32,000 nucleotides of DNA from Pseudidiomarina andamanensis (GCF_009734345.1 NZ_CP032551.1:1620001-1652000); one strand, 5' to 3'. Counted from the stretch's first letter, positions 2,283-23,500 are shown. Made by a program: numbers and translations. The notes: generated by a model not told the origin, from the letters alone.

Positions 2283-2510
2283 TGCCCTTCATTTTGACTG
2301 AAGGAAATTATTCACTCCTACACAGTGAGAAATTATACAGTTTTTACATGGGAAATGCTCTTTTTCACTGTAGTCTAGAAATTTACATGACTACAAGACA
2401 GAGTTTAAGCTAGCTACACAAATAATAGTAAATACTTCTGATCATAGTTCGTAATATTCTATAGTAATGGGCACAATAAAATAACTACTCCACCAAAATG
2501 GATTTTAAAT

Positions 2511-2576
2511 TTTCACGTAAATTTTTATTTTTTTGTTTACAAACGGAATTTGTTACGTAAAATTTTAACGTAAACT
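2511..2576 (+). promoter_or_regulatory. candidate dnd promoter (TTTACA 2536-2541, N16, TAAAAT 2558-2563) overlapped by three ACGTAAA repeats; possible DndB operator
   Basis: ACGTAAA occurs at 2515-2521, 2555-2561 and 2568-2574. The last two form the near-palindrome TACG-N11-CGTA (2554-2572), which sits over the -10 element immediately upstream of dndB. Confidence 0.35.
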
Positions 2577-2581
2577 TACAG

Positions 2582-3676
2582 ATGGATTTGAAAATGAACC
2601 AGATTGATAACGATTTTTGCTACTCTTTTCCAGCCGTGAGGGGTGTGCAAGCTGGCCGCCCGTTTTATATCGCGACTTGTCCACTTAGAATAATCCCCAA
2701 AATTTTCATCTACGATGAAGAAGAAGTGCCACCAGAATTACGGGCACAACGGACTTTAAATAAAACTAGAATTCCGGAGATGTGTCGATACTTGGTTGAT
2801 AATCCAGATGATTATGTTTTTTCAGCTTTGACGGCCTCAGTAGGAAACGAAGTAACATTCATAGAACATGAAAACGCCCCCAATATGGGCATGCTGCGGG
2901 TATCAATGAATGCTAGTATTTTAATAAATGATGGGCAGCATCGCAGAGCCGCTATCGAGGAAGCTATCAAGCTTCGTCCAGAGCTCGGTCAAGACAATAT
3001 AGCTATTGTTTTTTATATAGATGAAGGCTTGCGAAGAAGTCAGCAAATGTTTGCTGATCTAAACCAGCATGCGATCCGACCATCCACTTCGTTGTCTACT
3101 CTATATGATATGCGTGATCCTGGGGCGCGTATCGCAAAGTATCTTGCAAATAATGCAACTCCATTCGTCGGTTTTACCGAGATGGAAAAAAGCAGTATAC
3201 CGGTTAAAAGCAATAAGATTTTTGCATTGAGCGCTATAAAGCATGCGACACGAGCTCTCCTTCAAAAAGGCCCAAAGGACGAGATCAGTGAAGAGGAAAA
3301 AGCTATGGCTTTGCAGTTTTGGAACGAGATTAATGAAAACATGCCTGAGTGGAAATTAGTACAAGAGAAGAAACTGTCGGTTAGCGAGTTTAGACAAGAA
3401 TATTTAACAGCACACGGTATTGCGCTGCAAGCACTCGCAAATGTAGGTAGCCAGCTTATTCCCTTAGCTGAAAAGGAACGAAAAGCTATATTGACCAAAC
3501 TTCAAAGTATCGACTGGCGACGCTCTAACTATGAATGGATAAAGCGAGCAATGATGCATGGAAAGTTATCCAAAGCCAGTTCCAACATATTCTTGACGTC
3601 ACTGGAGATTAAGCGGCAATTGGGGCTTCAGATTACTGAAGATGAGATCACTAAAGAAACTGAGTTGTTAAAATGA
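2582..3676 (+). CDS. dndB: DndB, DGQHR-domain DNA phosphorothioation regulator
   Basis: 364 aa. Contains LINDGQHRRAAIEEA (DGQHR motif) and QQMFADLNQ, both characteristic of DndB/DGQHR proteins. Its stop overlaps the dndC start (ATGA at 3673-3676). An alternative start at ATG 2594 (MNQIDN...) has a slightly better GGA spacing. Confidence 0.9.
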   Translation: MDLKMNQIDNDFCYSFPAVRGVQAGRPFYIATCPLRIIPKIFIYDEEEVPPELRAQRTLNKTRIPEMCRYLVDNPDDYVFSALTASVGNEVTFIEHENAPNMGMLRVSMNASILINDGQHRRAAIEEAIKLRPELGQDNIAIVFYIDEGLRRSQQMFADLNQHAIRPSTSLSTLYDMRDPGARIAKYLANNATPFVGFTEMEKSSIPVKSNKIFALSAIKHATRALLQKGPKDEISEEEKAMALQFWNEINENMPEWKLVQEKKLSVSEFRQEYLTAHGIALQALANVGSQLIPLAEKERKAILTKLQSIDWRRSNYEWIKRAMMHGKLSKASSNIFLTSLEIKRQLGLQITEDEITKETELLK

Positions 3677-5301
3677 TGACGAATTTTAGTCAATTTGATT
3701 TAGATGAGTACATCGAATTTATCGAGCAAGAAAAATTTGCCGACAAATTGCTGTCGGAACATATCGCAAATGTACAAAGAGTTTACTTACAAGATAAACG
3801 TCCTTGGGTAATTGGATATAGTGGCGGAAAAGATTCTTCTGCGGTAATGGTAATCGTTTATCTAGCTTTACTGGGATTGGAGCCACAACAAAGACATAAA
3901 CACGTATTTGTTGTGGCGTCGGACACATTGGTAGAGACACCTATAGTCGTAAATCACGTAAATAACTCTCTTGATGCTATTCAAAAGGGGGCCCAGCGGG
4001 ACAAATTGCCAATTACGTCCCACAAAGTAGTGCCGAAAACCAATGAAACTTTTTGGGCGAACCTTCTTGGTAAGGGATATCCAGCTCCAACTCGCCAGTT
4101 CCGTTGGTGTACAGAGCGAATGAAAATTGACCCAGTCAGTTCTTTCATAACTGATAAGGTTAGTCAATTTGATGAAGTGATTGTCGTGCTAGGCTCTCGC
4201 TCACAGGAGAGCGCTTCGCGAGCTCAAGTCATAGCTAAGCACAAAATATCTGGTTCAGATTTGGCTAAACACACAACGCTTTCGAATGCTTTTATTTACA
4301 CTCCTATCGACACATGGGGCGTTGATGATGTTTGGAAAATCTTACGTCTCTGCCATTTAGAAACACAAGAGACACCTTACGGAACGAAGAATAAATGGCA
4401 TGACAAGTATGATCTTGAGTGGGAAAACCCGTGGGGTGGGAAGAATCTAATTTTATGGAATCTTTATAAGGACTCCTCGGGACAGGGTGAATGTCCCATG
4501 GTTATTGACGAAACCACTCCCTCATGCGGCAACTCTCGTTTTGGGTGCTGGACTTGCACAGTAGTTACAAAAGACAGAGCTATGGAGAGTCTCGTTCAGA
4601 ATGGCGAAGACTGGATGCTGCCATTGCTAAAATTTAGAAATATTTTATCTCGCAGCACATCACCGAAACTTAAGAAAAAATATCGAAGTCATATAAGACG
4701 TGATGGTCGATTAGCATTCAAAACTCTGCGAGAAGATGGTGATAAAATTTTAACTAATGACTACACAACTGGTCCCTACTTGTTGAAGTACCGGAAGTTG
4801 GCTTTAAAGATTCTTCTTCGGATGCAAAAAAAATTAGCGCTTGTGCAAAAAGACTTGGAACTGATCACAGTACCAGAGCTGCACGCTATTCGGCATGAGT
4901 GGTTAAATGATCCTAACGACCCGGACTGGAACGATGAGTTACCTAAAATTTTTAAAGAAGTATTTGGATATGATCTTGATTGGTCAGTAGATGATACAAA
5001 CCAGTTTACACATCAGGAGTCAGCTCTTCTCGACGAAGTTGCTCCAAATTTTAATGTCTCACCGCAGATGCTGAAAAAATTAATCGATCTAGAAATATCC
5101 ATGAGCGGTTTAACTCGAAGAGTCGGGATTTTTAATAAAATCGGTCGTCTTATTCAACAGGATTGGGGATCCGCCGAGTCTATTATTCTGGAGCACAAAG
5201 ACAATCGTCAGCGTCAGATTAATCAATCTCGGGAAGTTGAACTCCTAACAGAAGAACTAAATATGCTAAACGCTTCAATAGAGAAAGAGACAAAAATATG
5301 A
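3673..5301 (+). CDS. dndC: DndC, PAPS-reductase/PP-loop family sulfurtransferase for DNA phosphorothioation
   Basis: 542 aa. PP-loop GYSGGKDSS, FRWCTERMKI, and a Cys cluster CGNSRFGCWTCT typical of DndC. ATGA overlaps with dndB (3673-3676) and dndD (5298-5301). Confidence 0.93.
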   Translation: MMTNFSQFDLDEYIEFIEQEKFADKLLSEHIANVQRVYLQDKRPWVIGYSGGKDSSAVMVIVYLALLGLEPQQRHKHVFVVASDTLVETPIVVNHVNNSLDAIQKGAQRDKLPITSHKVVPKTNETFWANLLGKGYPAPTRQFRWCTERMKIDPVSSFITDKVSQFDEVIVVLGSRSQESASRAQVIAKHKISGSDLAKHTTLSNAFIYTPIDTWGVDDVWKILRLCHLETQETPYGTKNKWHDKYDLEWENPWGGKNLILWNLYKDSSGQGECPMVIDETTPSCGNSRFGCWTCTVVTKDRAMESLVQNGEDWMLPLLKFRNILSRSTSPKLKKKYRSHIRRDGRLAFKTLREDGDKILTNDYTTGPYLLKYRKLALKILLRMQKKLALVQKDLELITVPELHAIRHEWLNDPNDPDWNDELPKIFKEVFGYDLDWSVDDTNQFTHQESALLDEVAPNFNVSPQMLKKLIDLEISMSGLTRRVGIFNKIGRLIQQDWGSAESIILEHKDNRQRQINQSREVELLTEELNMLNASIEKETKI

Positions 5302-7289
5302 TTTTCAAAACTCTAACATTAAACAATTTTAGGGTTTTTAAGGGGTTACATGACATTGATTTGGCTCCTAAAAAACATGGACTTGTCGGTAAGCCAATAG
5401 TTTTATTTGGTGGATTGAATGGCGCTGGGAAAACGAGCATTTTAACAGCCATTCGACTTATTCTAATGGGACGAAAAGCGTTAGGTACCGCAATTAGCCA
5501 GAAAGAGTACATCAAATTTTTAATCGAACAAATAAACAAAGAAGCTTTAAGTTCGCAGAAAAACGCTAGAGCATCGATTGAGTTAGAGTTCACGCATACT
5601 CACAAAGGAAAGCATAATACTTTTGTAGTGAATAGAGGATGGAACTCAGAAGGAACCGAGTCTCTGAAACTAAAGCTAAATGACGAAATTTTAGACACTC
5701 TAAACATCGAACAAACTCAGGCAATACTCTCAGATCTAGTTCCAACGGGTATTGGGGATCTCTTCTTTTTTGATGGAGAAAAAATTGCAGAGCTTGCGGA
5801 AGATGACACTGGTCACTACTTAAAGGACGCAGTGCAAAAGTTACTCGGTATTGATGTGGTAAATCGCTTGAGAGAAGATTTGGAAATCTACCTTAAACAG
5901 GTAACAAAGGACTCATCGGATAATGAGTCAGTTAAGCAAATAACAGCTCTAGAGGCAGAAAAAGATCTGCTATACCAATTAGCGACGCGTTCCCGCCAAA
6001 AAGCTGAAGAAATTCGTCCACAGTTGTTCGAACTGCGAAAGTTGGCTTCTCACCTTGAAAATAAATTGCAAGAACGGGGCGGCGCCTGGGCCAAAACAAA
6101 AAAAGACGAAAAGGCACGAGCAGATCAATTAATTAGAGATGAACATCAAATAAGTGGCGTCATATTAAATGAGCTCGATGATTACTTCCCATTAGCTTTA
6201 GCACCAAACGCAGTTAAGTCGCTTTTCGAACAATTACACAAAGAAAAATCCAAGAAGCAGGAGAACGGCTTTTTGGAGCAATTGACCAAGTTAGTACCTA
6301 AGTTGTCTCGGGTCCTTGCCAAAGAAATCAACGCTGACGCTGCCAACTTAGAGAAATTAATTCTGGACCATGCAGAGTTATTAAGTTCAAGCCGCCAAGA
6401 TGGGAGCGTTGTTCTCGACATTTCTGACACAGATTTTTATCGTTTACTTAATGGAAATGAAGCATCTCTTAACTCGAAGGCCAAATTAGTCGAAAGCCTA
6501 AGAAAGCTAGAGTTTTCCCAGTCGGAATTAGCATCGCTGTCGACCAACATTTCTCGTGCCCCAGACGAAGAAGAATTGGGAGAGATATTTGCTGAATTAC
6601 GGGAATTAGATAAGAAGATTATTGAAAAACGAGATAATTATCTTGCTCATTTGAAAGAGGCGCAATCTCGAATGATGAAGACGCTCGAGCTTTCTCGACG
6701 TCTTGAAAAATTAATAAGTCAGCAAAAAAATCAAGTAACGATAGTTAAAGCTATTAAGCGCGTAAGCTCTGCACAATCTGCATTAACACAGTTCGCCCGA
6801 CGACTAACAAAGTTACGTGTTAGTCAATTGGAAGAATTATTCGTAATATCTTATCGAAAGCTTGCTAGAAAGGATGAATTGAAGTTAGCAGCAAAAATTA
6901 ACCCTGAAAATTTTGACGTTTCACTCATTGATCAGGATGGTACTGAAATTAATAGAAAATCTCTTTCTGCTGGGGAGAAACAAATTTTCGCATTCGCAAT
7001 TCTCGAGGCTTTAGGAAAATTATCAGGAAAGGTATTACCTCTTGTAGTTGATACCCCGCTTGGACGTTTAGATTCCAAACACCGAGATAAGCTTATAACT
7101 CGTTATTTCCCAGAAGCAAGTGATCAGGTCATTTTGCTGTCTACTGATACGGAAGTCGATAAAGGTTTTTATTCAATGCTTGAAGAGTATGTTTCTCATT
7201 CGTATGAAATTAAATTCGATGGTAAATTGCGAAATTCAAGAATATTTGAAGGATACTTCTGGAAAGATAATTACATGGAGGTCGTGTAA
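5298..7289 (+). CDS. dndD: DndD, SMC/ABC-like ATPase of the phosphorothioation complex
   Basis: 663 aa. Walker A GGLNGAGKTS, a long charged coiled-coil middle, signature-like LSAGEKQIFAFAILEAL, and Walker B/D-loop PLVVDTPLGRLD. Confidence 0.9.
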   Translation: MIFKTLTLNNFRVFKGLHDIDLAPKKHGLVGKPIVLFGGLNGAGKTSILTAIRLILMGRKALGTAISQKEYIKFLIEQINKEALSSQKNARASIELEFTHTHKGKHNTFVVNRGWNSEGTESLKLKLNDEILDTLNIEQTQAILSDLVPTGIGDLFFFDGEKIAELAEDDTGHYLKDAVQKLLGIDVVNRLREDLEIYLKQVTKDSSDNESVKQITALEAEKDLLYQLATRSRQKAEEIRPQLFELRKLASHLENKLQERGGAWAKTKKDEKARADQLIRDEHQISGVILNELDDYFPLALAPNAVKSLFEQLHKEKSKKQENGFLEQLTKLVPKLSRVLAKEINADAANLEKLILDHAELLSSSRQDGSVVLDISDTDFYRLLNGNEASLNSKAKLVESLRKLEFSQSELASLSTNISRAPDEEELGEIFAELRELDKKIIEKRDNYLAHLKEAQSRMMKTLELSRRLEKLISQQKNQVTIVKAIKRVSSAQSALTQFARRLTKLRVSQLEELFVISYRKLARKDELKLAAKINPENFDVSLIDQDGTEINRKSLSAGEKQIFAFAILEALGKLSGKVLPLVVDTPLGRLDSKHRDKLITRYFPEASDQVILLSTDTEVDKGFYSMLEEYVSHSYEIKFDGKLRNSRIFEGYFWKDNYMEVV

Positions 7290-7645
7290 TGTTACCCAAC
7301 AGAATGCAGTTATCGAAGGTGGTCGAAGAACAGTTAAAAAGACTAAAATCGCAAACTGGTATAACTCCGAATATATCGGCACGTATTGCCTTTTTTAAGT
7401 CAATTGAAAGTGGATATAGGTTTGATCCTAGCATCAGTTACAAACTAGATGGTACGTTGACTTTAGATAAGGTCACCTGGTTAGGAAAAACTCAGCAAAT
7501 CACTGAACTGCTACTACGATTAAACTACCAAGAGTTAGATGAAAAGCATTTGCAAGTAGCTTGGGCTGCTCATGTAGAACATGGAATTTCCTCGCTGAGA
7601 AATCAAAAGACGTTAGCTGATTTTTGTCAAAGTATACTTCTATGA
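7289..7645 (+). CDS. dndE: DndE, small DNA-binding phosphorothioation protein
   Basis: 118 aa. Its start shares one base with the dndD stop (TAATG). N-terminus LSKVVEEQLKRLKSQTGITPNISARIAFFKSIE. Size and position (last gene after dndD) are as in characterised dnd loci. Confidence 0.8.
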   Translation: MLPNRMQLSKVVEEQLKRLKSQTGITPNISARIAFFKSIESGYRFDPSISYKLDGTLTLDKVTWLGKTQQITELLLRLNYQELDEKHLQVAWAAHVEHGISSLRNQKTLADFCQSILL

Positions 7646-7665
7646 TGGAGTTCTTTAGTTCTAAC

Positions 7666-7707
7666 AATGCCGAGCTAGAAAATTCGCTCGGCATTATTAT
7701 TTTATTT
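7666..7707 (+). terminator. rho-independent terminator after dndE, shared by the convergent operon
   Basis: Perfect 10-bp stem AATGCCGAGC (7666-7675) / GCTCGGCATT (7686-7695) with a 10-nt loop, followed by ATTATTTTATTT. It is the only structure in the 56 nt between the two converging stop codons (7645 and 7702). There is no T-run on the minus-strand side. Confidence 0.6.
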
Positions 7708-8157
7708 AGCCCAACTGAAAGGGTTTAGGTTTGTATCATTATTCAGCTCGTCATTTAATTCCGAATTTATCAATAGCTCAATCGACTGAAGTGCATTCGT
7801 ACCATCTTTGATATATTCAGAAATGACTGACAGTCCACCATTGGCATATTCTTCAAAAATAAGAATAGCATTGGAGAAATGTTCTTTCTTCAATATGTTT
7901 GTATCCTTAGTTTCAGCTAGCGCTAGACAATGAATGAAAGGAATATCAATATTTTCATCGAATATTCTTAACATTATACGTTCACCACTTTTATCGAAAG
8001 GTAAGCGTATTTGCTTTTTATAGCCTAATGAAGCTGCAAAAACTAAGATATTCTTGAAAGAAGAAAAAATATTTTCATCTTTCAATATAGTTAATAGTTT
8101 ACTATGCTCTTCTGGGCGACGAACTCTAATATCTTCTCTTTTCTCGTTATTAGGCAT
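7702..8157 (-). CDS. 151-aa protein, last gene of the dnd-linked operon (possibly the small dnd-associated / PbeA-like protein)
   Basis: Its ATG 8157 overlaps the upstream ATPase stop by 8 nt (AAATGCCTAA). Sequence ...NILVFAASLGYKKQIRLPF...FIHCLALAETKD...LIFEEYANGGLSVI.... No catalytic motif recognised. The family assignment is from memory of dnd-neighbourhood annotations and is unverified. Confidence 0.7.
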   Translation of the reverse strand: MPNNEKREDIRVRRPEEHSKLLTILKDENIFSSFKNILVFAASLGYKKQIRLPFDKSGERIMLRIFDENIDIPFIHCLALAETKDTNILKKEHFSNAILIFEEYANGGLSVISEYIKDGTNALQSIELLINSELNDELNNDTNLNPFSWAK

Positions 8158-10213
8158 TTATTTTTACCTCATCTATAGACGAGTAATCAAATCCAGTATC
8201 AGAAGCAGCTAAGTAACCTCGTTCCGTTAGCTTATTGTCTTTAATAGATGACGTGTGATAAACCAGCTTGTAGGACTTACCAATACGGCCTTCACAAGCC
8301 TGTTTCACATTGCCTGACCATTGCGAGTTAGAAACAAAAATAATAACTTGATCTGCTAGATTAGAAACACTTTGTGCAACTTTAAATCTATAGTCATCGT
8401 CCAAAGCCCCAAAAGGTGAGTCCATAACTAAAGGATATATGCCTCCTGTAAAAAAGTTTGTGTTCTTTTTATTAATCTGCTCTTTAGCTAATTCAATTAT
8501 GCTTGCAATAAATGATAGGCTGGTAACCTGCTTCTCGCCAGTCGATTGTTCTCTAGCTTCCTGTGTTGCCCCGTCTATATCTGTTTTAACTACCTTTAAA
8601 TGATAGTTTTCATCAATAATAGCTTCTACAGGCTTTCGCATAATTGCTTGGAACGTTCTGTTGACTCTTTGAGACAAGTCTAAACGTATGCGATCTGTTA
8701 AAAACTCATTAAGAGAATTTAATGCATTAGCAACGTTTTGTGCGGCAGTGTATCTTGCTGAAGTCAAAGTGTGTTTCTCTTTCTTGTCTTCCAGCTCTTC
8801 AAACTGCTCTTTTCTTTCCTTTAAACTTGCTTCAATAGTTTCGAGCTCAATATCGTGCCGAGCCAGTTCTTTTTCTAAATTAATCGCTTGTTTGTTTAAG
8901 TCATTAATATCATTTTCTAATTTCGCAATCTGGTCATCATCTTGACCCATTTCTCGAAGTTTTAAATTAATTTCTGTGATTTCATCTTGGATGCTTTCGA
9001 TCTTTAACAAGCGTTCATTATATCGATTTGTGAAAACTTCGTGTTTTTGTTTATAAGTATCATTATCGCTATCGAAATGACTAATCAAAGCTTGCAGCCG
9101 AGTAAAGACCTCCTCCGCATCATCGCTTCCAGCGTCTTTCAGAGCGTCTTGCAATGTATTTTCTTCAATAGAGTTAGGTCTTATAGGATTTCCGCACATA
9201 CAGTAACCTGACTCAATGAGGTCTTTGATAAATTGATCTCGAACCCTATACGGTAGGCGCCCGATCTTTCTATTTTCTTCAATTATTTGCTTGGAGTCAT
9301 TAATTACTTTTGAAGACAATATTGAGGCTCGATATGCGTCAATCGTGCTCGCGCGATCTGAGTTTATCTCGTCCATTTCCTTTTTAAGGTCACGAATGTT
9401 GCGGTTCAAAGCTTCTCGTTTATCAGCTAACGATTTTGCTTTTTCAATTTTTTTTAACTCGTTATTCTTCCCGTCGATGGATTCGCGAGTCGAAGCTAAA
9501 ATTTGTTTAGTTGACCGAATCGAATCCGAAATGCGTGTTTTCTCGTCTTCTTTAAGGTTTATTTCGTCATATATGTCTTGATGAAGCTCCGACTTAAAGT
9601 CCTTTCCTTCTTTTCGAATTTGACGTGCGGCTTTCTGGACATGTTTGTGAGCTCTTTCTATTAGCTCTAGGCCAGTTAAATATCGAATAGCTTGCTTTAT
9701 CTTGTCACCTTCATTCACATTTGCGATTTTTTCTATACGTTCACCATTGAAAAAGAAATATGGCTGAAGATTTCTTGGTATAAGCAACTCAATTGTGGAG
9801 CCTGGCATTTTTGAGCGCACCGTCTTCCCTGATTCGTCAGTAACATCGACAGAAAAATCAGATTCCTTTAACGAAACGGTACCGTCTGAACGCTTTAGAT
9901 ACTTGTTTTTTCTTGTTATATCGTATCGATTGCCAACATCAGAACACTTTATTTGTACCGAAGTAGTAATTAAATCTCCTGCATTTGCATTAGTAATGGC
10001 AGCTTCATTGAGAATGAAGTCATTTTCGGTGTCAAAGTCGGTTTGACCATAAAAACACCATTTAAAAGCGTTAAGCAGACTAGTTTTTCCTGCGCCGTTT
10101 GCTCCATGAATTACGGTTACGTTTTTGTCGTTGCTTGTTGCAAAGTCCAAAATTATTGGCTTCCAAAACTGCCGGAAGTTTTCAATCCGCATTGAATCAA
10201 TTTTCATTAACAA
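8150..10213 (-). CDS. DndD-like SMC/ABC (RecF/Rad50-type) ATPase with long coiled coil
   Basis: Track ORF is 687 aa from TTG 10213. The likely start is ATG 10207 (MKIDSMRIENF...), which overlaps the micro-ORF stop by 11 nt. Walker A HGANGAGKTS, a coiled-coil middle of about 350 aa, signature-like STGEKQVTSLSFIASI, and Walker B YPLVMDSPFGALDDD (compare DndD PLVVDTPLGRLD). A CMCG motif lies mid-coil. Confidence 0.9.
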   Translation of the reverse strand: MLMKIDSMRIENFRQFWKPIILDFATSNDKNVTVIHGANGAGKTSLLNAFKWCFYGQTDFDTENDFILNEAAITNANAGDLITTSVQIKCSDVGNRYDITRKNKYLKRSDGTVSLKESDFSVDVTDESGKTVRSKMPGSTIELLIPRNLQPYFFFNGERIEKIANVNEGDKIKQAIRYLTGLELIERAHKHVQKAARQIRKEGKDFKSELHQDIYDEINLKEDEKTRISDSIRSTKQILASTRESIDGKNNELKKIEKAKSLADKREALNRNIRDLKKEMDEINSDRASTIDAYRASILSSKVINDSKQIIEENRKIGRLPYRVRDQFIKDLIESGYCMCGNPIRPNSIEENTLQDALKDAGSDDAEEVFTRLQALISHFDSDNDTYKQKHEVFTNRYNERLLKIESIQDEITEINLKLREMGQDDDQIAKLENDINDLNKQAINLEKELARHDIELETIEASLKERKEQFEELEDKKEKHTLTSARYTAAQNVANALNSLNEFLTDRIRLDLSQRVNRTFQAIMRKPVEAIIDENYHLKVVKTDIDGATQEAREQSTGEKQVTSLSFIASIIELAKEQINKKNTNFFTGGIYPLVMDSPFGALDDDYRFKVAQSVSNLADQVIIFVSNSQWSGNVKQACEGRIGKSYKLVYHTSSIKDNKLTERGYLAASDTGFDYSSIDEVKINA

Positions 10214-10397
10214 TACCCCGGTTTATGCACGCGACTATTGTATTTACTATACTGTCATACTTGTTCTCATTCTTTTCTAATTCAGCATCAGCTAAACTTT
10301 GCTTTTCTAGTGCAAGAACTTCACGAAAAATTCTTTGTTCTGCTGGGGTAAGACTTTGAATAATTTCATCAACGCTATTCATCAAAATGTACTCCAT
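10197..10397 (-). CDS. micro-ORF (61-66 aa), acidic helical protein, translationally coupled between the helicase and the ATPase
   Basis: It exactly fills the only gap in an otherwise overlapping operon. Start is ATG 10397 (23-nt overlap with the helicase) or ATG 10382 (ATGAATAG overlap). Its stop TGA 10199..10197 lies inside the ATPase start region. No motif recognised. Confidence 0.55.
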   Translation of the reverse strand: MEYILMNSVDEIIQSLTPAEQRIFREVLALEKQSLADAELEKNENKYDSIVNTIVACINRGIVNEN

Positions 10398-12420
10398 GTC
10401 GTTTGGCTAGGTCCAATAGCATGTCTTCATTATCCTTAGCATTTATAGCTAATGAGTTGTACTCCAGCCCTCTAAAAACCTCACGAGAAACTAGTTCAGG
10501 GCTAATTGCTGCATGTTTAGGCGGAATAACAATAAAGTCAAATATTGCAGCTTGTGTCTTTCCTTGTGCTTTTCGAAGTACACGCCCCCGACGCTGTATA
10601 AACTCTCTGGGATTCGTGGTTGACGAGAGAATAAAAGCATTTTGGGTGGCAGGTACATCTACCCCCTCGTCTAGACACTTTATCGCTGCTATAACTTCCA
10701 GTTCACCGGAGGCGAATAAGCTCAGTATTTCTTGTCTATCTTCAAGTGACTCAGATGCTGTAAATTTACGAGCTTTCAGTCTAAGTTCCTTTCCAACTAA
10801 CTTTAAAACTTTGTCTATATGGCGCAACCCGTCACTGTCACGATGTGTTCCGCAATAAATTAACGTATGAGTTTTTGACTCCATACGCTGAATTTCTTGT
10901 GACAACAGGTCAAGTTTGCTTTCAACCATCGATATTAGTTCATTTCTCTGTCTTAATAATTTTTCATGCAGCTGAGTACGAGGTTGGCCTGGCCGTCTGT
11001 TTTTTTTCTGCTCCTCAATATCATCACTAAGCTCCTGATAGAGATAAAACTCCTGTTCCGTCATTTCACAGAGAAGCGGTGTGTAACTATAAGGAACCAA
11101 GAAACTTTTTTGAATTGCATCTGCCAATGAAAACTCATAAACACTTTTACCAAAGTAATTGAAAAGTGATTCGGTACCTTCATCGTCATTATGCCTTACA
11201 GGAGTCGCGCTTAACGCTAGTCGAAAATTCGCATTATCTGGCAACTTAGACGAGAAAGTCGGAGCCCCAAGATTATGCGCTTCGTCTGCGATAATTAGAA
11301 AATCTCCAGTAATCGGTTTGATCAAAGCCTGAAAGTAATCCGAAATAAAAGTACTGTTCGTAACCATAGCCATGACAATACCTTCGCGCTTGGCTGAAGT
11401 AGTAACTAAAGCATCAGCAAGCTTACTACGCCATGCGTCTGAACTTTCATAACATTTTATTGGAGAGTATCCGAAGTTACTTGCTTCATCAAACCATTGA
11501 TCTAAAAGGTGCTTCAGCGGAAGGATAAAGCACACAAATAACTTGCGCTTTGCCGGCAATGTGCGTTGTTTGATAAGCTTTTGAACTATCGATAATGCTG
11601 TAATAGTTTTACCTGAGCCGGTTGCCATTACCAAAAAGCCTTTACCGCTAGCTTGACCCCATGCTTCTATCGCTTCAATTTGATAGTCACGAAGTGTTAT
11701 ATGAGATGCGGTTTGGGTTATTTCACTCTGCAGTTTTTCCAAGCTACTAGCTTTCTCCGAAATTTGTGATATCAGGTTCAAAGAGGGTGTGAGGACTTTG
11801 TAACTTGGATCTATATTCTTCCATAAGTTTTCAAAACGTTCACAATTGATATTGATTCGACGTTTTTCAGTTGAAACCCAGCTCTTGAAAACATCGATGT
11901 GCTCCCAGTTAGACTTGGCGTTACCAGTTAAGTTGTAAGAGCCTGTGAATGCAATTCTGTTCTCAAAAAAATCTGTTGCATTCCCTATCTTCGCATGGAA
12001 CATTCCGGAGGATGTAATCTTAGGTAACGCTATTTTGAACTCTAAAACTCCATATCTGATCAATGTGGCGAGGCGTGTTTGTAGTGGTTTATCTAACTCT
12101 AAAAACTCGCTTATAATCCGATCGTCTAGTAATTTCTTTGTAACGCCACTGTCTTCTTCAGCTTTCACGGTGCTTATGACTTCAGCATCTTCTTTTTGAA
12201 GTTGTGGTGAAATTACCCATCTGCTCTTACCGTTATTTGATGCGAACATTAAAATTGCTTCGCATACATCTCGTAACCAAGCGGATGAAAAATATCCTAC
12301 AGCAACATCAAATGTTTTAGCATTCGAAAGTAAAGGAACAAACAACTCTTCGTTTGGATCTGAATACCCAGACGATAAAGTCTCAGGAAGATCAATTTCA
12401 GAAAATTGTTTAGAAGTCAC
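10375..12420 (-). CDS. PLD(HKD)-family nuclease domain fused to an SF2 DEAH-box (type III Res-like) helicase; candidate PT-dependent restriction enzyme
   Basis: 681 aa with a GTG start at 12420. N-terminal HKD-like motif GMFHAKIGNATD...GSYNLTGNA (His codon at 11997..11995). Helicase motifs DYQIEAIEAW, MATGSGKT (I), IIADEAHNLG (II), LALSATP (III), IKCLDEGVDVP (V) and FIQRRGRVLR (VI). Confidence 0.9.
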   Translation of the reverse strand: MTSKQFSEIDLPETLSSGYSDPNEELFVPLLSNAKTFDVAVGYFSSAWLRDVCEAILMFASNNGKSRWVISPQLQKEDAEVISTVKAEEDSGVTKKLLDDRIISEFLELDKPLQTRLATLIRYGVLEFKIALPKITSSGMFHAKIGNATDFFENRIAFTGSYNLTGNAKSNWEHIDVFKSWVSTEKRRININCERFENLWKNIDPSYKVLTPSLNLISQISEKASSLEKLQSEITQTASHITLRDYQIEAIEAWGQASGKGFLVMATGSGKTITALSIVQKLIKQRTLPAKRKLFVCFILPLKHLLDQWFDEASNFGYSPIKCYESSDAWRSKLADALVTTSAKREGIVMAMVTNSTFISDYFQALIKPITGDFLIIADEAHNLGAPTFSSKLPDNANFRLALSATPVRHNDDEGTESLFNYFGKSVYEFSLADAIQKSFLVPYSYTPLLCEMTEQEFYLYQELSDDIEEQKKNRRPGQPRTQLHEKLLRQRNELISMVESKLDLLSQEIQRMESKTHTLIYCGTHRDSDGLRHIDKVLKLVGKELRLKARKFTASESLEDRQEILSLFASGELEVIAAIKCLDEGVDVPATQNAFILSSTTNPREFIQRRGRVLRKAQGKTQAAIFDFIVIPPKHAAISPELVSREVFRGLEYNSLAINAKDNEDMLLDLAKRHGVHFDE

Positions 12421-13201
12421 TGAAGTCGTCCAATAATTTGTCTAATGAATCATCGACTTCGAACTCAATAATATCGCTATTTGTCAATCTACTTTTGGCC
12501 CCAGCAATAGCTATATTTTTATGCTTGGCGAGTGCTTTTAAATCTCTAACAACTTTTTTTGTCGGTATTTCTGCAGATCTGTAAAGTTCTCGTAGAATCT
12601 GTACTTCATTCTTTGCGATTTCGGCATCTGATATTGCAATATCTTTAGCAATAGTCACGATCTGCAACTTCGCCACGCTGTTGAGACTCTCTATTTCCTC
12701 AATTAAATCTTCAATGCTATAACGGCTAAAAAGCCAGTAGAGGGCCCTCATAAGAACGAAGTCTTTCTCTGAGCTGGTTAGAAAAGTCAAACCTCGGATT
12801 GAATCTCGAACTTGCTGAAGCTCCTGATATTTTATAGAGCCATCTATCTTAGCCATCATCGCAGAAACTTTTGCGATGAGGAGCGCATATCGCATGTTCG
12901 AGGATGTTTTATCTACAGCGGGTTGCTTGTGAAAAATGACTACAGGCTCATGAAGAAGTTCGCGACTGAGGTTGGCGACAGTAATTCCGGAGCTCGTTTT
13001 TACTAACTTAGGAAGAATATCTAACTGTTCCTCAATTAAAGTTTCATATATCAACTCCAAGGAAATTTGACGAGTTACATCAAGTTTAGAAAATTCTTCT
13101 ATATTTGCGATCGTGCCTAGGAAGTATCCTTCGGTATCTATATTACGCCGAACCTTGTCCAAGTTGTAGACTTCTTCATAACCAATAACATTAGTGTTCA
13201 T
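12410..13201 (-). CDS. TerB-like domain protein, first gene of the operon
   Basis: 263 aa. Its stop TAA 12412..12410 overlaps the helicase GTG start by 11 nt. The C-terminal half shows the paired TerB-type helices LLIAKVSAMMAKIDGSIKYQELQQVRDSI and VTIAKDIAISDAEIAKNEVQILRELY, followed by an acidic tail DDSLDKLLDDFSDF. The domain call is by pattern only. Confidence 0.7.
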   Translation of the reverse strand: MNTNVIGYEEVYNLDKVRRNIDTEGYFLGTIANIEEFSKLDVTRQISLELIYETLIEEQLDILPKLVKTSSGITVANLSRELLHEPVVIFHKQPAVDKTSSNMRYALLIAKVSAMMAKIDGSIKYQELQQVRDSIRGLTFLTSSEKDFVLMRALYWLFSRYSIEDLIEEIESLNSVAKLQIVTIAKDIAISDAEIAKNEVQILRELYRSAEIPTKKVVRDLKALAKHKNIAIAGAKSRLTNSDIIEFEVDDSLDKLLDDFSDF

Positions 13202-13394
13202 TCCGTTGCCCCACTTATTAAATGATAGTTTTGAAACAAGCTTTATTTTTGATGATATGAAATTAACTCATTTATAACTGAGAGACAATACGAATAACTA
13301 CTGTTAAAAATCGGGGGACTAGACTAGTAATTAAGATTTATTCAATTACTTTTCGATTAGTTAGGCTAGTTAACAAAGTAAGTTCAACTGCATT

Positions 13395-13429
13395 GAAACG
13401 AAAACGCCCTCATCGATGAAGACGTTTTA
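13395..13429 (-). terminator. rho-independent terminator of yicC
   Basis: The minus strand reads AAAACGTCTTCATCGATGAGGGCGTTTTCGTTTC. The stem is CGTCTTCA/TGAGGGCG (two G-U pairs) around a TCGA loop, followed by TTTTCGTTTC, about 25 nt after the yicC stop. Confidence 0.55.
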
Positions 13430-13452
13430 GGAATCAAAATAAATGAAATTAG

Positions 13453-15895: not shown

Positions 15896-17578
15896 CTAGA
15901 ACGTTTCGGGTTGCCAAGAGAGGCCGATGCGAGCATCGGTCACTTGGCATTCGCCACCGGCTTTCACGCGTTTGGTGGATTCATCGCCAGCCACCATTAA
16001 GCGAAATTCTTTCTCAATCAGATTGAAGCTATTACGCTCTTGGCAGAGCAAGCGTAATGAATCGACCATGCCGCGATCACTCAAGAAGCGTGTGGTTGGT
16101 GGTTCTTGCACCACTTCTTCACCTTTCGCAAAATGGACATTCGTGATGCCATCATCAGTGAACTGACCACGAGCGCCAGCCACTAAATAATGGAAGGTGG
16201 CAGCCACCGCATTCTCGGTTTGCTGGGCGCCAATACCAAAGAACACGCCACGCTCACCAAGCACTTCAAATGCGCCGTTCAACACATTCACCGCAAGCGC
16301 CGTGCGAGTATCGATACCCACTGCTACTGGCGTATTGGTAGTTGCCGCTACGCGCAGTAAGCGACCATGACGACCCATATCTGAGAACTGACCATCAAGT
16401 GTCGCAACACTAAACAGCCCGACACCACCAAGCGGGTGATAGGTTACACTATCGGAATTCATATTTCGTGGGCACGAATCATCTTTGCTGCAAGCAAACG
16501 GCGGCGCTTCACCGGCAATAACGCCGGCGCGCAAGGCTTCGGCGCTGGTGCCACTGGCCACCATCGAGCGCGCAGTCATCGCATTCATGGCATCACTGGT
16601 GGCACCCACCACTAACTTATTCGCGCGCATTTTCAGATAAATGCTGGTCATTAAATCGGTTGGTTGACTCAATGGGTTCAAGAACGCTTTGCGAACTAAG
16701 CCCGGATCATTGCCAACAATCAAAACGGCATCCGCCCAGTCGACAATTTTCGGGCCTTGCAGCGCATCTTTACAGAACGCGACTTGCTGCTTGTGCTGCT
16801 CAGGGAATACACGTGCGCGCTTCCAGGTGCCAAGCTCTTGCTCACGCAACGCATCAAGCTCATCGCATTTGCCAGTGCGCTGCGCTGCATTCACAGCGGC
16901 ATCAATTGGTAACCAGCGCACTTGCGCACCTAAGCTTTCAAATGCACTAATAAATGGCTCGACAGCGGTAATTGGGTCACGCGCGCCAGCGGCGGCAATG
17001 GCAATGCGCGGCATATCATCACTTGCGCGCACTTTATCGGCCTGTTCTAACATGGCTTGTAGAATTTGGCGCTTCGCTTCCACTTTCGTTAGCTTGATGC
17101 GCGCGGTGTCGTGCTTACCTTTCGGAGCCGGCATTTCAAGGTGGTCAATAATGAGGTTCCACTCACGTTCCGACAAACTGTCATATAAATGACGCGTGGC
17201 CCGGCGGGTAAATTCTTCTTGGAAGCTACGCTCCGGCACCACTTCAGAACGCATGCGCTCATATAAAATCTCCAGCGCCATTTTAACGTCATCACGGGTT
17301 TTACGACGGTGTACTGGCCACAACTCATCGCGCAACAGTGGCGTGGTGTAGGCTTCACTTAAATTAATGTAGCGATCGGTGCGCATAGTGGTGCCATCCA
17401 GCCAATCGGTGTCATTGCAGTGCGTCCACGCCATGCTTGAGCACAGTGCCATTTCATCACCCATCAAAAACAATTGATAATTAGGGCCGGTGGCGCGCTC
17501 CGCTTCTTGTGCAGATGCAGCTTGCGGAAACAACGCTCCCCCCACAACACATAAGGCAGCGATTATTGAATATTTCAT
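15896..17578 (-). CDS. exported cyanophycinase-like (peptidase S51 / class I GATase-like fold) protein with an N-terminal extension
   Basis: 560 aa. Signal peptide MKYSIIAALCVVGGALFPQAASAQE. The C-terminal part has LIVGNDPG, VVGATSDAMNAM (compare cyanophycinase GTSAGA), DGQFSDMGRHGRLLRV and GIDTRTALAV, resembling the cyanophycinase blocks DQHF..RGR.GRL and GIDE.TAL. Confidence 0.5.
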   Translation of the reverse strand: MKYSIIAALCVVGGALFPQAASAQEAERATGPNYQLFLMGDEMALCSSMAWTHCNDTDWLDGTTMRTDRYINLSEAYTTPLLRDELWPVHRRKTRDDVKMALEILYERMRSEVVPERSFQEEFTRRATRHLYDSLSEREWNLIIDHLEMPAPKGKHDTARIKLTKVEAKRQILQAMLEQADKVRASDDMPRIAIAAAGARDPITAVEPFISAFESLGAQVRWLPIDAAVNAAQRTGKCDELDALREQELGTWKRARVFPEQHKQQVAFCKDALQGPKIVDWADAVLIVGNDPGLVRKAFLNPLSQPTDLMTSIYLKMRANKLVVGATSDAMNAMTARSMVASGTSAEALRAGVIAGEAPPFACSKDDSCPRNMNSDSVTYHPLGGVGLFSVATLDGQFSDMGRHGRLLRVAATTNTPVAVGIDTRTALAVNVLNGAFEVLGERGVFFGIGAQQTENAVAATFHYLVAGARGQFTDDGITNVHFAKGEEVVQEPPTTRFLSDRGMVDSLRLLCQERNSFNLIEKEFRLMVAGDESTKRVKAGGECQVTDARIGLSWQPETF

Positions 17579-19629: not shown

Positions 19630-20530
19630 CAACCCGCACGAAAACTATGCGTATTGGGTAAAAATTGCGACACGTGCGTCAGTTTCTGTCGCATTCATAT
19701 TAATTGCGGTAAAAATAGCGGCGTGGTTGATAACCGATTCCAGCAGTATGTTGGCGTCGTTAACCGATTCTCTACTCGATAGTCTCGCCAGCTTGTTCAC
19801 ATTTTTCGCGGTGCGTTATGCGGTGCAACCAGCCGACAATGAGCACCGGTTTGGGCACGGTAAAGCCGAATCGTTAGCGGCGTTGGTGCAGTCTGCGTTG
19901 ATTACCGGGTCGGCCATGCTGCTATTGATTCACAGTGTTCAGCAGTGGGTTCAAGGTACGCCTGTACAGCAAGCTGAAATTGGTGTGTATGTGTCGGTAT
20001 TCGCAATTGCATTAACGCTTGCGCTAGTGGTGTTGCAGCGGGTGGCAATTAAGAAAACTGGCTCTCAGGCAATTGCAGCCGATGCACTTCACTTTTCATC
20101 TGACTTATTACTCAACAGTGCGGTTATTGTGGCGCTTATTTTAAGTGCTTACGGGTGGCTGTGGGCCGATAGCGTTTTTGCCATCATCATTGCAGTATTT
20201 TTAGCGCAAGGGGCGGTACGTATAGGCTGGGATGCGTTTCAGTCACTGATGGATCGCGAGCTTCCTAGTGACGAAAAACAGCTAATTATCGATACTATTA
20301 AAGGCATTCAAGGCGTGCACGGTATTCACGGTTTAAAAACCCGCTCAGCTGGCCCAACCCGTTTTGTGCAAGCCCATATTGAGCTCGACGATAACCTAAA
20401 CTTGCGCCAAGCCCACGATATTGCCGATAAGGCCGAACTGGCTGTTGCCAACCTGTTCGACCATACCGACGTGATTATTCACATGGACCCGTTATCGGTT
20501 GTTCCGGCGAAGGTTGACGGAGCGACGTAA
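19619..20530 (+). CDS. fieF: cation diffusion facilitator family Fe/Zn efflux transporter
   Basis: Colinear with E. coli FieF: [59 protein letters not shown] prefer ATG 19619 (AAGGG 8 nt upstream, 11-nt overlap with trmL) over the track start at 19589. Confidence 0.88.
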
Positions 20531-23500
20531 CGCCGCTCCCATCAAGCCCATCAACAATAACCACCAAGTCATTTGACCTGAAGATGATTGTGGTGCAGCC
20601 GGTTCATGCGGCACATTTACCTGTACTCGCAAGATACCTGAAGCCGTTGCCCCGCGATTATCTGTTACCACGTACACAACAGTTACTGCGCCTGTGATAC
20701 CCGTAGCTGGCGTTACGGTTACGGTGCCGCCTTCGAATGCAACGGTTCCCCCAGTACTTGAGGTGATTTCAGCTGATGCTACGGTTAGCGTGTCACCATC
20801 GGCGTCAATGTCATTGGCAACTACGTCGACGCTCACCGGCTTATTAACCACTGTACTCACCGTATCAACTGTCGTTTCTGGTGCACGGTTCGCTAATATC
20901 GTCACCGCAACAGAGGCTGTCGCAACACCACCGCGTCCATCATCAATGGCATAGGTGACCGTTGCCGTTCCGGCGTAGTTTGTTGGGGCATCGTAATGCA
21001 GTGCCGCGCCGTCGTTGATAACAGTTACTGTGCCGATATCTGCGTGCGCCGACGTAATCACGAGTGAATCGTCATCAGCATCAATGTCGTTGGCTAGTAC
21101 ATCAATTTCAGCATCCCCTTGCCAAATGACTGTCACCGAATCTGCCGTAGCTTCTGGCGTGGTATTGTCAGTTGCTGCAACACTTAGTGCACCCGGATCA
21201 ACAATCACACCGTTAGCCATACCATCTGCGTCGTTCGCACCACCATCTTCAAGCAGTAACTGCACACACCAGTGACCAGCTGTTAAACCGGCCTGCCACT
21301 GCGACGAGCCTAGTGCTGGACAAACGCCTGGTTCACCAGCAGCACTGAAGATCTGGTTGTTTTCGTCTTGCACAAAATCTTGCCATGCACCACCAATGTG
21401 CTTCCGATACAGGGCATTGGTTGGAATTGGTTGTGATAATGGCAGAACGATACGGCTGGTGCCGCCTAGCTCAGAGAGATCAAAGATTTCAAAATCAAAG
21501 GCCGAACCCATTCGGGTATGGTTTGTATCGACATCTAAATCTTCTGACACACTGATATGCGTGTTGAATTGACGCATGCCTAGCTCACCGAGTCGCAAAC
21601 ACGCACTCATTGAACCTTGAGCGAAGTGAATGTTACCCGCTTGTGCAGAACGTGCGGCTATCAGTTGGCAACTACGGCTTGGGTTTAGATAATTTGGCAT
21701 GCCCTGACCTAAGTCGTCATTGGTGCCATCATACATATCTGGTAAGCCATCGCCATCCGCATCGGTATCTGAACCCAGCGTAGGGTGAGCATCAACAGCA
21801 TTCAAAATTACACTCGCATAGCCACGCAGGCCTGCTGCGTCGGTTACTGTGACTCGAACGGTTGCCGCGGTATTCGCCGCAATTAACAGTGGGTCAATCA
21901 CATAGCGAGTGCCACCATCGGTTGCGCCGCCGGCAACTGGGCTTTGCCAATTGTAGGTGAGCGTATCACCGGCATTCGCATCGGTTGCCGTTGCCACTAA
22001 CTCGATCAAACCACCACTGCGAAGCACGGTAGTGCGCTTCTGGCCGTCTTGTGAGTAAGCGACGCTAACTTGCGGAGCCATGTTGGCAGCGCTACTGGTT
22101 ACCGAAACCTCTGCAACTTCGCCTAGGTTCATGCTATCTGCGAGCGCCACAACAATGGTATTGCCTGCAGCTGGAGCGGTAACACTGATGGTGCCTTGTG
22201 TGCCTTGCTCAAGCTCAAGCGAACTCGCGACACCATCAATGGTGTAGTTGATGACAAATGGGTAGCTTGGCGCCAGACCATTCAACATCACCGACAAGTT
22301 CACTGAGGCGCCAGCCGCTGTTGTTACGTTGCGTGCTAGCGATACCATCGGCACCACTTCAATGCGCTGACCAAGCACGGTACGCTCGCCATCTGCATTA
22401 GTCGCTTGCCACATCACTTCGTGTACACCTGGCGCGAATACTGGCGCCCGTTGCTCAACTAAACTGACTGGCAACGGCTGACCGTTTGCATCTGTCGCTG
22501 AAGCTTCGCCGAGCTCGACACGAGTGAGTGCGCCGGTTGCAGGAACAACAAGGTCATCAGGTACCACAAGATTGATGGCGCCAGAGCCAGTGATTGTCAC
22601 TTCAGCCGTGGCGGAGTCACGCCCACCCATACCATCGTCAACACTGTAGTTCACGCTGACTTTGCCGGTATATTGCGCATCAATTGTTAGCTGAACTTGA
22701 TTCGAAGCAATACTGACTGAACCGACACTTGCCGATGCTTCAACAAGTGTAAGCGAGTCTTCATTAATGTCGGTATCATTCGCTAATACGTCCAGTAAAT
22801 ACACGCCATCGTTATTGCGTGGCAGACTGAAAGTATCATCGTTTGCTACCGGCGGCTCTTGACTGTACGTCACTTCAATAGTGAACATCGGCAAACTTAC
22901 ACTAACAGTTCCGTCATTCACGCTAAGCGAAATATCAACCCAAACCGCAATGTCTTCCATTGCTGGCGTGCCACTCAACGTACCGGTTGCTGTATCGATA
23001 GTTAACCAAGTCGGTAAGTTTTCTGCACTGAATGTCAGCACGTCGTTATCGATATCTTCAACTGTTGGGGTGAAACTATAGGCTTCGTCCACTTCGGCAA
23101 ATGACGCTGGTGTGCCAGTAATGGTTGGCACATCATTAACGTTGGTAACTTCAATTGCGAACGCAGGAAGGTCGGCGGTTAACGTGCCATCACTCACCGT
23201 GATCACAATATTACTGTGAACGCCTACATCGTCATTGGTTGGCGTACCCGTCAGCGCACCGGTTGAGCTATTGAAACTCGCCCACGTTGGTGTGCCGGTA
23301 ATGCTAAAGCTAAGTGAGTCGCCATCAACATCAGATGCTGTCGGCGTAAAGCTATAGGCTGCATCTTGCGCAACGGTTGTTGCAGGCGTACCGCTAATCA
23401 CTGGTGCATCGTTCACGTTCGTTACTTCAATACTAAACGCTGGTAGCGATGCACTGAGTTCGCCATCGCTCACCGTGATAGTGAGACCAGCTGTACTACC

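Follow-up and report, generated by a model that had tools for sequence, protein, structure and literature searches.

A TerB-like lead gene coupled to a bacterial PbeABCD module beside dndBCDE in Pseudidiomarina andamanensis

We analysed a 32,000-nucleotide (nt) stretch of the Pseudidiomarina andamanensis genome (NZ_CP032551.1:1620001–1652000, assembly GCF_009734345.1; hereafter the window, with positions counted from its first letter). Between positions 7702 and 13201, five minus-strand open reading frames (ORFs) form a coupled array that converges on the phosphorothioate (PT) modification genes dndBCDE. TerBL (the lead protein described below), the helicase, the 151-aa protein, DndC, YicC and RNase PH each have an identical NCBI entry from this species. 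ORF calling placed the five genes at the coordinates given in an earlier note, made by a model from the sequence alone, and the overlapping junctions, the AT-rich composition and the hairpin in the 56-nt gap between the two gene sets that it had described were all confirmed. Four of the five genes are, by their sequences, a bacterial PbeABCD module paired with dndBCDE, and the fifth, at the head of the operon, encodes a TerB-like protein that we call TerBL. The features of the locus are:

2582–3676, plus strand: dndB, PT modification gene
3673–5301, plus strand: dndC, PT modification gene
5298–7289, plus strand: dndD, PT modification gene
7289–7645, plus strand: dndE, PT modification gene
7666–7695, strand-neutral: hairpin with a 10-base-pair (bp) perfect repeat, probably a shared bidirectional terminator
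7702–8157, minus strand: pbeD, 151 amino acids (aa), 'DNA phosphorothioation-associated protein 4', for which a DndE-like fold is plausible
8150–10207, minus strand: pbeC, 685 aa from the ATG at 10207, or 687 aa from a TTG start at 10213
10197–10397, minus strand: pbeB, 66 aa, or 61 aa from an internal ATG at 10382
10375–12420, minus strand: pbeA, 681 aa from a GTG start, a single-HKD (phospholipase D, PLD) nuclease with a DEAH superfamily 2 (SF2) helicase
12410–13201, minus strand: the TerB-like lead gene encoding TerBL, 263 aa, NCBI WP_156267640.1, 'TerB family tellurite resistance protein'
12413–12448, minus strand: codons of the TerBL C-terminal tail, residues 252–263 (SLDKLLDDFSDF), a proposed docking peptide
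13202–13452, minus strand: 251-nt intergenic sequence upstream of TerBL, the presumed operon promoter region

Along the operon, the TerBL gene overlaps pbeA by 11 nt, pbeA overlaps pbeB by 23 or 8 nt, pbeB overlaps pbeC by 17 or 11 nt, and pbeC overlaps pbeD by 8 nt. Similarly close spacing, from −23 to +10 nt, is seen in homologous TerB-led loci, with a widest gap of 37 nt among the 10 loci tabulated, indicating that translational coupling is conserved rather than a chance feature. The operon and dndBCDE are separated by the 56 nt between the stop codons of dndE (7645) and pbeD (7702), within which the arms AATGCCGAGC (7666–7675) and GCTCGGCATT (7686–7695) make a perfect 10-bp inverted repeat. 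As RNA this hairpin has a folding energy of −17.3 kcal/mol (z = −3.39 against shuffles), and its sequence suggests that it probably serves as a terminator for both gene sets; a terminator scanner made no call on it, owing to its 10-nt loop. At the other end of the operon, the region upstream of TerBL holds the yicC terminator hairpin (near 13410–13437), and a consensus scan of 13202–13452 found no minus-strand sigma-70-like site, so that we infer the operon promoter here rather than locate it.

The two gene sets share an island with a GC content of 0.35–0.42 (about 2.3 to 13.4 kb), compared with 0.46–0.53 in its flanks, bordered by a LysR regulator on one side and the core genes yicC-rph-pyrE on the other. 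PADLOC models match the products of all four modification genes (DndB 1.5e-163, DndC 1.9e-259, DndD 2.2e-226 and DndE 2e-50), and the Pfam DndB and DndE families are also matched by the dndB and dndE products. Neither dndA nor another cysteine desulfurase gene was found by ORF and PADLOC scans of the island (2283–13452), and, as far as the window extends, its borders carry neither an integrase nor a tRNA.

Several lines of evidence identify the four genes downstream of TerBL. First, PbeA matches the PADLOC profile PDLC02707 (4.1e-204) from end to end, with residues 6–665 on positions 2–669 of 672, and matches TIGR04095 dnd_restrict_1 over residues 239–675 (1.6e-148), the latter under that model's 600-bit cut-off. 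Its Pfam domains are PLDc_2 and ResIII/DEAD/Helicase_C, and it carries the motifs H142-x-K144, G-S-Y-N, GSGKT268, DEAH379, SATP404 and QRRGRVLR609, with the HKD residues kept in all 10 aligned loci.

Second, PbeC matches PADLOC PDLC02714 (1.2e-204; residues 3–653 on positions 1–650 of 651), a match that begins at the ATG at 10207, and its Pfam assignment is AAA_23/SMC_N. The motifs expected of an ATPase of this kind are in place: a Walker A motif (GANGAGKT37), a CxC zinc hook in the middle of the protein (C338-M-C340), the signature STGEKQ557 and a Walker B motif (LVMDSP595). As a separate observation, another PADLOC 'PbeC' model, PDLC02756, scores 6.7e-210 on the DndD of the window (5298–7289), close to the 2.2e-226 of the best DndD model. 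PbeC models thus cross-match true DndD, and automated tools can exchange PbeC and DndD calls where the best model and the CxC hook go unchecked.

Third, the small ORF between pbeA and pbeC fits published PbeB in position and size. It has no match among PADLOC (even at E 10), Pfam or NCBIfam models, and it has an alignable counterpart of 56–66 aa in all 10 loci compared; one of these, in locus L001, is 59% identical (1.3e-20, tblastn).

Fourth, PbeD matches TIGR04062 (5.3e-30) with 104.6 bits, above the 74.25-bit cut-off. Its AlphaFold2 (AF2) model has a mean predicted local distance difference test score (pLDDT) of 90.6, and the best Foldseek matches to this model in the PDB are the DndE structures 7x4e, 4lrv and 5wtu, at target template-modelling (TM) scores of 0.58–0.66, root mean square deviations of 3.5–4.4 Å and weak E values of at least 0.84. 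A profile search of PDB sequences returned no match for PbeD, and hhalign against DndE profiles gave a probability below 1% with shallow and deep alignments alike. With DndE at the top of the structural matches, weak E values and no link between sequence profiles, a DndE-like fold is plausible from the model but unproven.

Finally, the four genes stand in the order A-B-C-D beside the dnd genes with overlapping junctions. Their order equals, and their sizes nearly equal, those of pbeA-B-C-D in Haloterrigena jeotgali A29, the archaeon in which PbeABCD was characterized, with a PbeB of 66 aa and a PbeD of 152 aa (Xiong et al. 2019, PMC6459918). The likeness is close throughout: the same four proteins occur in the same order and at near-identical sizes (PbeD of 152 aa versus 151 aa) beside dnd genes. 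Unlike the archaeal system, the operon in the window is bacterial, its dndBCDE lacks an adjacent dndA, and TerBL is coupled to pbeA. Because Pbe has already been reported beside dndCD in 235 bacterial genomes (PMC6459918), the core is a known system and what is new is limited to the TerB-like lead gene.

The Aravind laboratory equates PbeABCD with a CxC ABC-ATPase system comprising an HKD-SF2 helicase, a small protein, a CxC-hook ATPase and a DndE cognate (PMC10853773). The window has each of these parts, including the C338-M-C340 hook and a partner with a plausible DndE-like fold, in tandem with DndD-DndE. It differs from the systems described there in its accessory gene, which encodes a TerB protein, whereas those listed in PMC10853773 are cytosine methylases and MTaX1. 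Two other partners of PT modification genes were considered and rejected. For DndFGH, none of the five proteins matches PADLOC DndF, DndG or DndH, and the largest ORF of the island encodes 687 aa, compared with about 1600 aa for DndH; for SspE (of the DUF262-DUF1524 type) and SspFGH, there is no PADLOC match to an Ssp effector, only a weak SspD cross-match of DndC.

The earlier note was right that the module is linked to the dnd genes, that it is neither DndFGH nor SspE (with no ORF of about 1600 aa in the island), and that the parts include a TerB-like protein, a PLD nuclease fused to a helicase and an SMC-type ATPase, and its guess of PbeABCD is borne out by the PbeA, PbeC and TIGR04062 matches. 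Its positional mapping has to be reversed: the PLD-helicase is PbeA, the micro-ORF PbeB, the ATPase PbeC and the 151-aa protein PbeD, as the H. jeotgali order and sizes dictate. The 151-aa protein, said to be without recognisable motifs, matches a family model above its cut-off. PADLOC accounts for PbeA, PbeC and the dnd products and gives nothing for TerBL or PbeB.

TerBL is the extra component beyond PbeABCD that the earlier note had anticipated. The protein matches Pfam TerB above the gathering score (3.5e-7) and has no match in NCBIfam or, even at E 10, in PADLOC. Its AF2 model (pLDDT 86.6, predicted TM score 0.82) comprises an alpha/beta domain (residues 1–95), a helical TerB domain (100–228), a disordered linker (235–251) and a C-terminal helix (252–262), and its sole fold match in the PDB is the TerB-like protein 2h5n. 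Within the TerB domain, both DxxxxxxE motifs (D120/E127 and D192/E199) show little or no variation in 37 family members. The family has few members: of 1.84 billion representatives searched with its profile, 72 proteins matched at E ≤1e-3 and 39 at ≤1e-10, and a tblastn search of plasmids with TerBL gave no match. TerB is not mentioned in connection with Pbe in Xiong et al. 2019 (PMC6459918), nor in the main text and one supplement of PMC10853773, although the 2020 source paper on CxC systems may mention a TerB neighbour, and our literature search found no paper combining TerB with Dnd or Pbe terms.

To place TerBL in its genomic context we sampled loci in two ways, from relatives of TerBL (26–63% identical to the window protein) and from PbeA; a closer alignment of eight TerBL sequences used as the query yielded five metagenome loci, and a PbeA scan of genome contigs yielded three loci, whereas exact-sequence searches with the TerBL of the window and with protein P0002 retrieved no contig. 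TerBL lies directly upstream of pbeA in 13 loci besides the window, across the whole of that identity range. Sampled via TerBL, PbeA is immediately downstream in 10 of 11 distinct loci (L001, L005/L006 and L008–L015 being the ten), followed by PbeB, PbeC and PbeD wherever the contig extends that far. Sampled via PbeA, TerBL is upstream in all three loci in which PbeA is 48–52% identical to that of the window (Seongchinamella sediminis, Shewanella colwelliana and Vibrio chagasii) and in none of those sampled at 44% identity or less. In the seven TerBL loci that were tabulated, the spacing between TerBL and pbeA ranges from −11 to +5 nt.

Genes for PT modification accompany 10 of the 14 TerBL-Pbe loci, and the contigs of the other four end too soon, on one side or both, for this to be decided, so that every locus with enough flanking sequence has dnd neighbours. 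They are convergent with the operon in the window, L001, L013, L014 and L018, divergent in L002, L009, L010 and L019, and about 8 kb away in L008. As flanks and dnd orientation vary between loci, the five genes move as a unit, mostly in marine Gammaproteobacteria.

The exception among the TerBL-sampled loci is L007 (94–7390), in which a 259-aa TerBL paralogue (P0012, E 3.6e-39) is followed by a gene for a 203-aa multi-pass membrane protein without a family match and then by a Zorya type I operon (ZorA, ZorB, ZorC with EH_Signature, and a fourth gene). The first two genes may be an accessory pair, led by TerB, that serves Zorya type I, or may form a two-gene module of their own.

Additional genes were noted beside several Pbe loci. 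In L001 (11271–11295), L018 (11221–12131), L013 (5900–8603) and L005 (6031–9266), further nuclease or defence genes adjoin the islands: an SBD(ScoMcrA)-HNH protein and an HNH_4 protein are encoded beside dndB, and a 592-aa HATPase_c_3 protein with a MzaB-like N terminus and an HNH or AIPR protein come directly after pbeD; the island in the window has no such added nuclease or defence gene. A Rhizobium indigoferae plasmid locus (L023, 3285–8085) has the permuted order pbeB-pbeC-pbeD-pbeA, with genes for a PAPS-reductase, a 1100-aa ATP-binding protein, a DUF4007 protein and a cysteine desulfurase nearby, an alternative Ssp/Dnd-like modification set.

Where PbeA is only 38–44% identical to that of the window, the gene abutting pbeA encodes a different protein, of 720–1026 aa, in four loci from alpha- and other proteobacteria:

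L016, 3906–6986, abutting pbeA: Sigma70_r4 lead gene
L020, 6835–8997, abutting pbeA: Sigma70_r4 lead gene
L021, 6600–8999, abutting pbeA: Sigma70_r4 lead gene
L025, 2933–5986, abutting pbeA: Sigma70_r4 lead gene

Sigma70_r4 is the sole recognisable domain of these proteins, which NCBI names 'sigma factor-like helix-turn-helix DNA-binding protein' and whose nearest library match, far under the cut-off, is the sigma region of MzaA. A comparison by hhalign shows these proteins to be unrelated to TerBL (probability 0.5%), and this result together with a domain scan led us to reject a hidden TerB domain. The layout is nevertheless alike. In Sigma70_r4-led loci, such as that on a plasmid of Ruegeria sp. 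THAF33, five genes are arranged as in the window, with the lead gene abutting pbeA, and the lead protein ends in the same tail motif as TerBL.

This tail, which follows the pattern [LIVMF]xx[LIVMF][LIVMF]xxFx(1-3)-COOH (LxxLLxxFxF in short form), reads ...LDKLLDDFSDF, ...LDVLLDEFDF or ...LDSLLEEFEEF in TerBL proteins and ...IIDNLLNSFGF, ...LNKILREFNF or ...LGMILGDFGID in sigma-type leads. It is matched in 29 of 37 TerBL members and in all four sigma-type leads; elsewhere it occurs in three non-lead ORFs, one of them PbeD, among the 283 of at least 100 aa in all fetched loci, and the Zorya-adjacent paralogue lacks it. From its sequence and distribution we infer that the tail may serve to dock the lead protein on the Pbe core. 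That an unrelated Sigma70_r4 protein can occupy this slot and end alike implies that the lead gene behaves as an exchangeable plug-in.

The C termini of PbeD, in the window (7702–7790) and in L002, L016, L019, L020 and L021, are themselves acidic-hydrophobic (...SIIDDISSF, ...TILDDITELANF and ...IDDVLGIFDDW, for example). They resemble the tail of the lead proteins, and the two tails might bind at one site, either together or in competition.

TerB proteins are present in several unrelated defence systems, including Shango, Bunzi and Dionysus, and the weaker matches of the TerBL profile point to the first of these: they are proteins of 670–990 aa with TerB_N, TerB and TerB_C domains that PADLOC calls SngA. 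Residues 14–221 of TerBL align with residues 351–559 of a 730-aa SngA (hhalign probability 99.8%, E 1.8e-28), and TerBL can therefore be regarded as a cut-down SngA core, homologous to the middle and TerB parts of that protein. Its gene accompanies genes for an SF2 helicase and an ATPase, as that of SngA does. Unlike SngA, TerBL lacks TerB_N and TerB_C and has no PADLOC SngA match, and its partners are PbeA and PbeC rather than SngC and SngB; the similarity of PbeA to the SngC model is confined to helicase motif I (3.4e-5 over 70 residues). We accordingly rejected Shango itself as an identity for the locus, with TerB_N, TerB_C, SngB and SngC all missing, and a tail in common with SngA was rejected as well, as SngA proteins lack the acidic-aromatic ending.

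We consider it likely that the locus encodes a PbeABCD antiviral module, paired with dndBCDE, that has been extended by TerBL as a fifth co-translated subunit. In such a system, DndBCDE and a cysteine desulfurase encoded elsewhere would mark host DNA with PT, and PbeABCD would require this mark to stop the replication of phage DNA, as described in the literature. Following published proposals, PbeC and PbeD would scan or clamp DNA, PbeA would be the effector, combining ATP-driven translocation with a single-HKD nuclease, and PbeB would be an essential small subunit, possibly an inhibitor or releasable brake. TerBL would act as an input or regulatory subunit that binds the Pbe core through its acidic-aromatic tail, LDKLLDDFSDF, and its TerB domain would gate or localise the core, so that the activity of the core would respond to a metal, a ligand or a signal near the membrane. 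The Sigma70_r4 protein would fill the same slot, by means of the same tail, in Pbe clades further removed from that of the window. In the literature, TerB proteins are proposed to bind metals and to move between cytoplasm and membrane, which makes it conceivable that TerBL senses DNA as it enters at the envelope.

Whether the operon is a restriction module, as the earlier note had called it, is doubtful. In H. jeotgali, the only Pbe system tested, all four pbe genes and PT made by the dnd genes are required for protection, viral DNA replication is halted without visible cleavage, PT-modified virus escapes and loss of dnd is non-toxic (PMC6459918). The note's description of a five-gene bacterial variant that is mechanistically uncharacterised likewise holds for the TerB lead gene only, given that the other four genes are full-length matches to an experimentally characterized system.

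Several considerations weigh against a TerBL-extended PbeABCD. The evidence on the operon is wholly computational, and the sample is small (14 TerBL-Pbe loci including the window) and partly ascertained via TerBL itself. The tail is short and acidic, and eight of the 37 TerBL members fail its strict pattern. The paralogue beside Zorya indicates that family members can occur outside Pbe; Pbe loci on Lactiplantibacillus and Halococcus plasmids have no annotated lead gene; and archaeal PbeABCD works without one (PMC6459918), so that TerBL is not needed for Pbe function generally. The two publications on which the mechanism draws, PMC6459918 and PMC10853773, disagree on whether Pbe cleaves DNA.

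Of the competing explanations, the one that survives best, although we think it unlikely, is an abortive-infection or self-targeting system in which infection releases a brake formed by PbeB and/or TerBL and the HKD nuclease attacks DNA generally, rather than one that discriminates and leaves PT-marked DNA alone. Abortive infection is one of two models put forward by the Aravind laboratory (PMC10853773), whose argument is that such systems hardly ever lack a nuclease and that the small protein could be an inhibitor that is released. The HKD catalytic residues are intact here and in the other loci aligned (10 of 10 in all), and 58% of pbeAC pairs have no dnd genes nearby (PMC6459918). The H. 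jeotgali results run the other way, with PT needed for protection, viral DNA left intact and no growth defect on dnd deletion (PMC6459918), and so does the TerBL clade, with its dnd genes in 10 of the 10 loci with enough flanking sequence.

Somewhat less probable again is that TerBL stands outside the Pbe machine, its small gene serving defence or stress independently in an island that it happens to share, perhaps alongside its own partner. This would fit the spread of TerB proteins over several unrelated defence systems, the completeness of archaeal PbeABCD with four genes (PMC6459918) and the close paralogue P0012, which precedes a 203-aa membrane protein and Zorya type I and not Pbe. It is difficult to reconcile with a TerBL fixed immediately 5′ of pbeA in 14 loci, at overlapping or near-abutting junctions, amid varied flanks and down to 26% identity, or with the observation that loci without TerBL can have in its place a different protein ending in that same tail, which the Zorya-linked paralogue lacks. 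That TerBL is a true TerB protein of tellurite or metal stress, with no link to defence, is highly improbable despite its Pfam match and NCBI name, as outside its own family it is closest to the SngA proteins of Shango, its gene is always found next to defence genes, and no other ter genes are among the annotated ORFs of the window; a Ter tellurite-resistance cluster was rejected on the same ground, with no further Ter domains (terZ/A/C/D/E) among those ORFs.

Elsewhere in the window, a second dip in GC content (0.42–0.44 at 25–28 kb) overlaps a minus-strand gene (20492–27472) for a 2326-aa repetitive surface protein with Big_9, He_PIG and cadherin-like repeats, probably a large adhesin unrelated to the Pbe operon. 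Two further minus-strand ORFs outside the island, of 560 aa (15896–17578) and 147 aa (836–1279), match no Pfam family, and the latter has no NCBIfam match either. An Rfam scan of all 32 kb found no RNA family, and megablast of the operon against E. coli genomes gave no match.

For annotation, the consequence is that automated tools would stop at four Pbe genes in this locus and overlook the fifth, whose NCBI name refers to tellurite resistance. A tentative extension of TerBL-extended PbeABCD, which we regard as possible but doubtful, is that bacterial Pbe has a so far unrecognised fifth position, an exchangeable input subunit of either a TerB-type SngA core or a Sigma70_r4 type that plugs into PbeABCD through a shared C-terminal peptide of the form hydrophobic-x-x-hydrophobic-L-x-x-F-x-F. 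If this were true, one PT-reading effector would be gated by different infection signals, and the TerB version would tie the mechanisms of Pbe and Shango together and help to show which signals TerB domains detect in immunity. The mechanism of Pbe is itself disputed, the founding study describing PT-dependent replication arrest without cleavage and the re-analysis holding that the conserved HKD nuclease must cut. A TerB subunit at PbeA that is swappable with a sigma-like protein by a common tail would offer a testable handle both on that mechanism and on the role of TerB in immunity.

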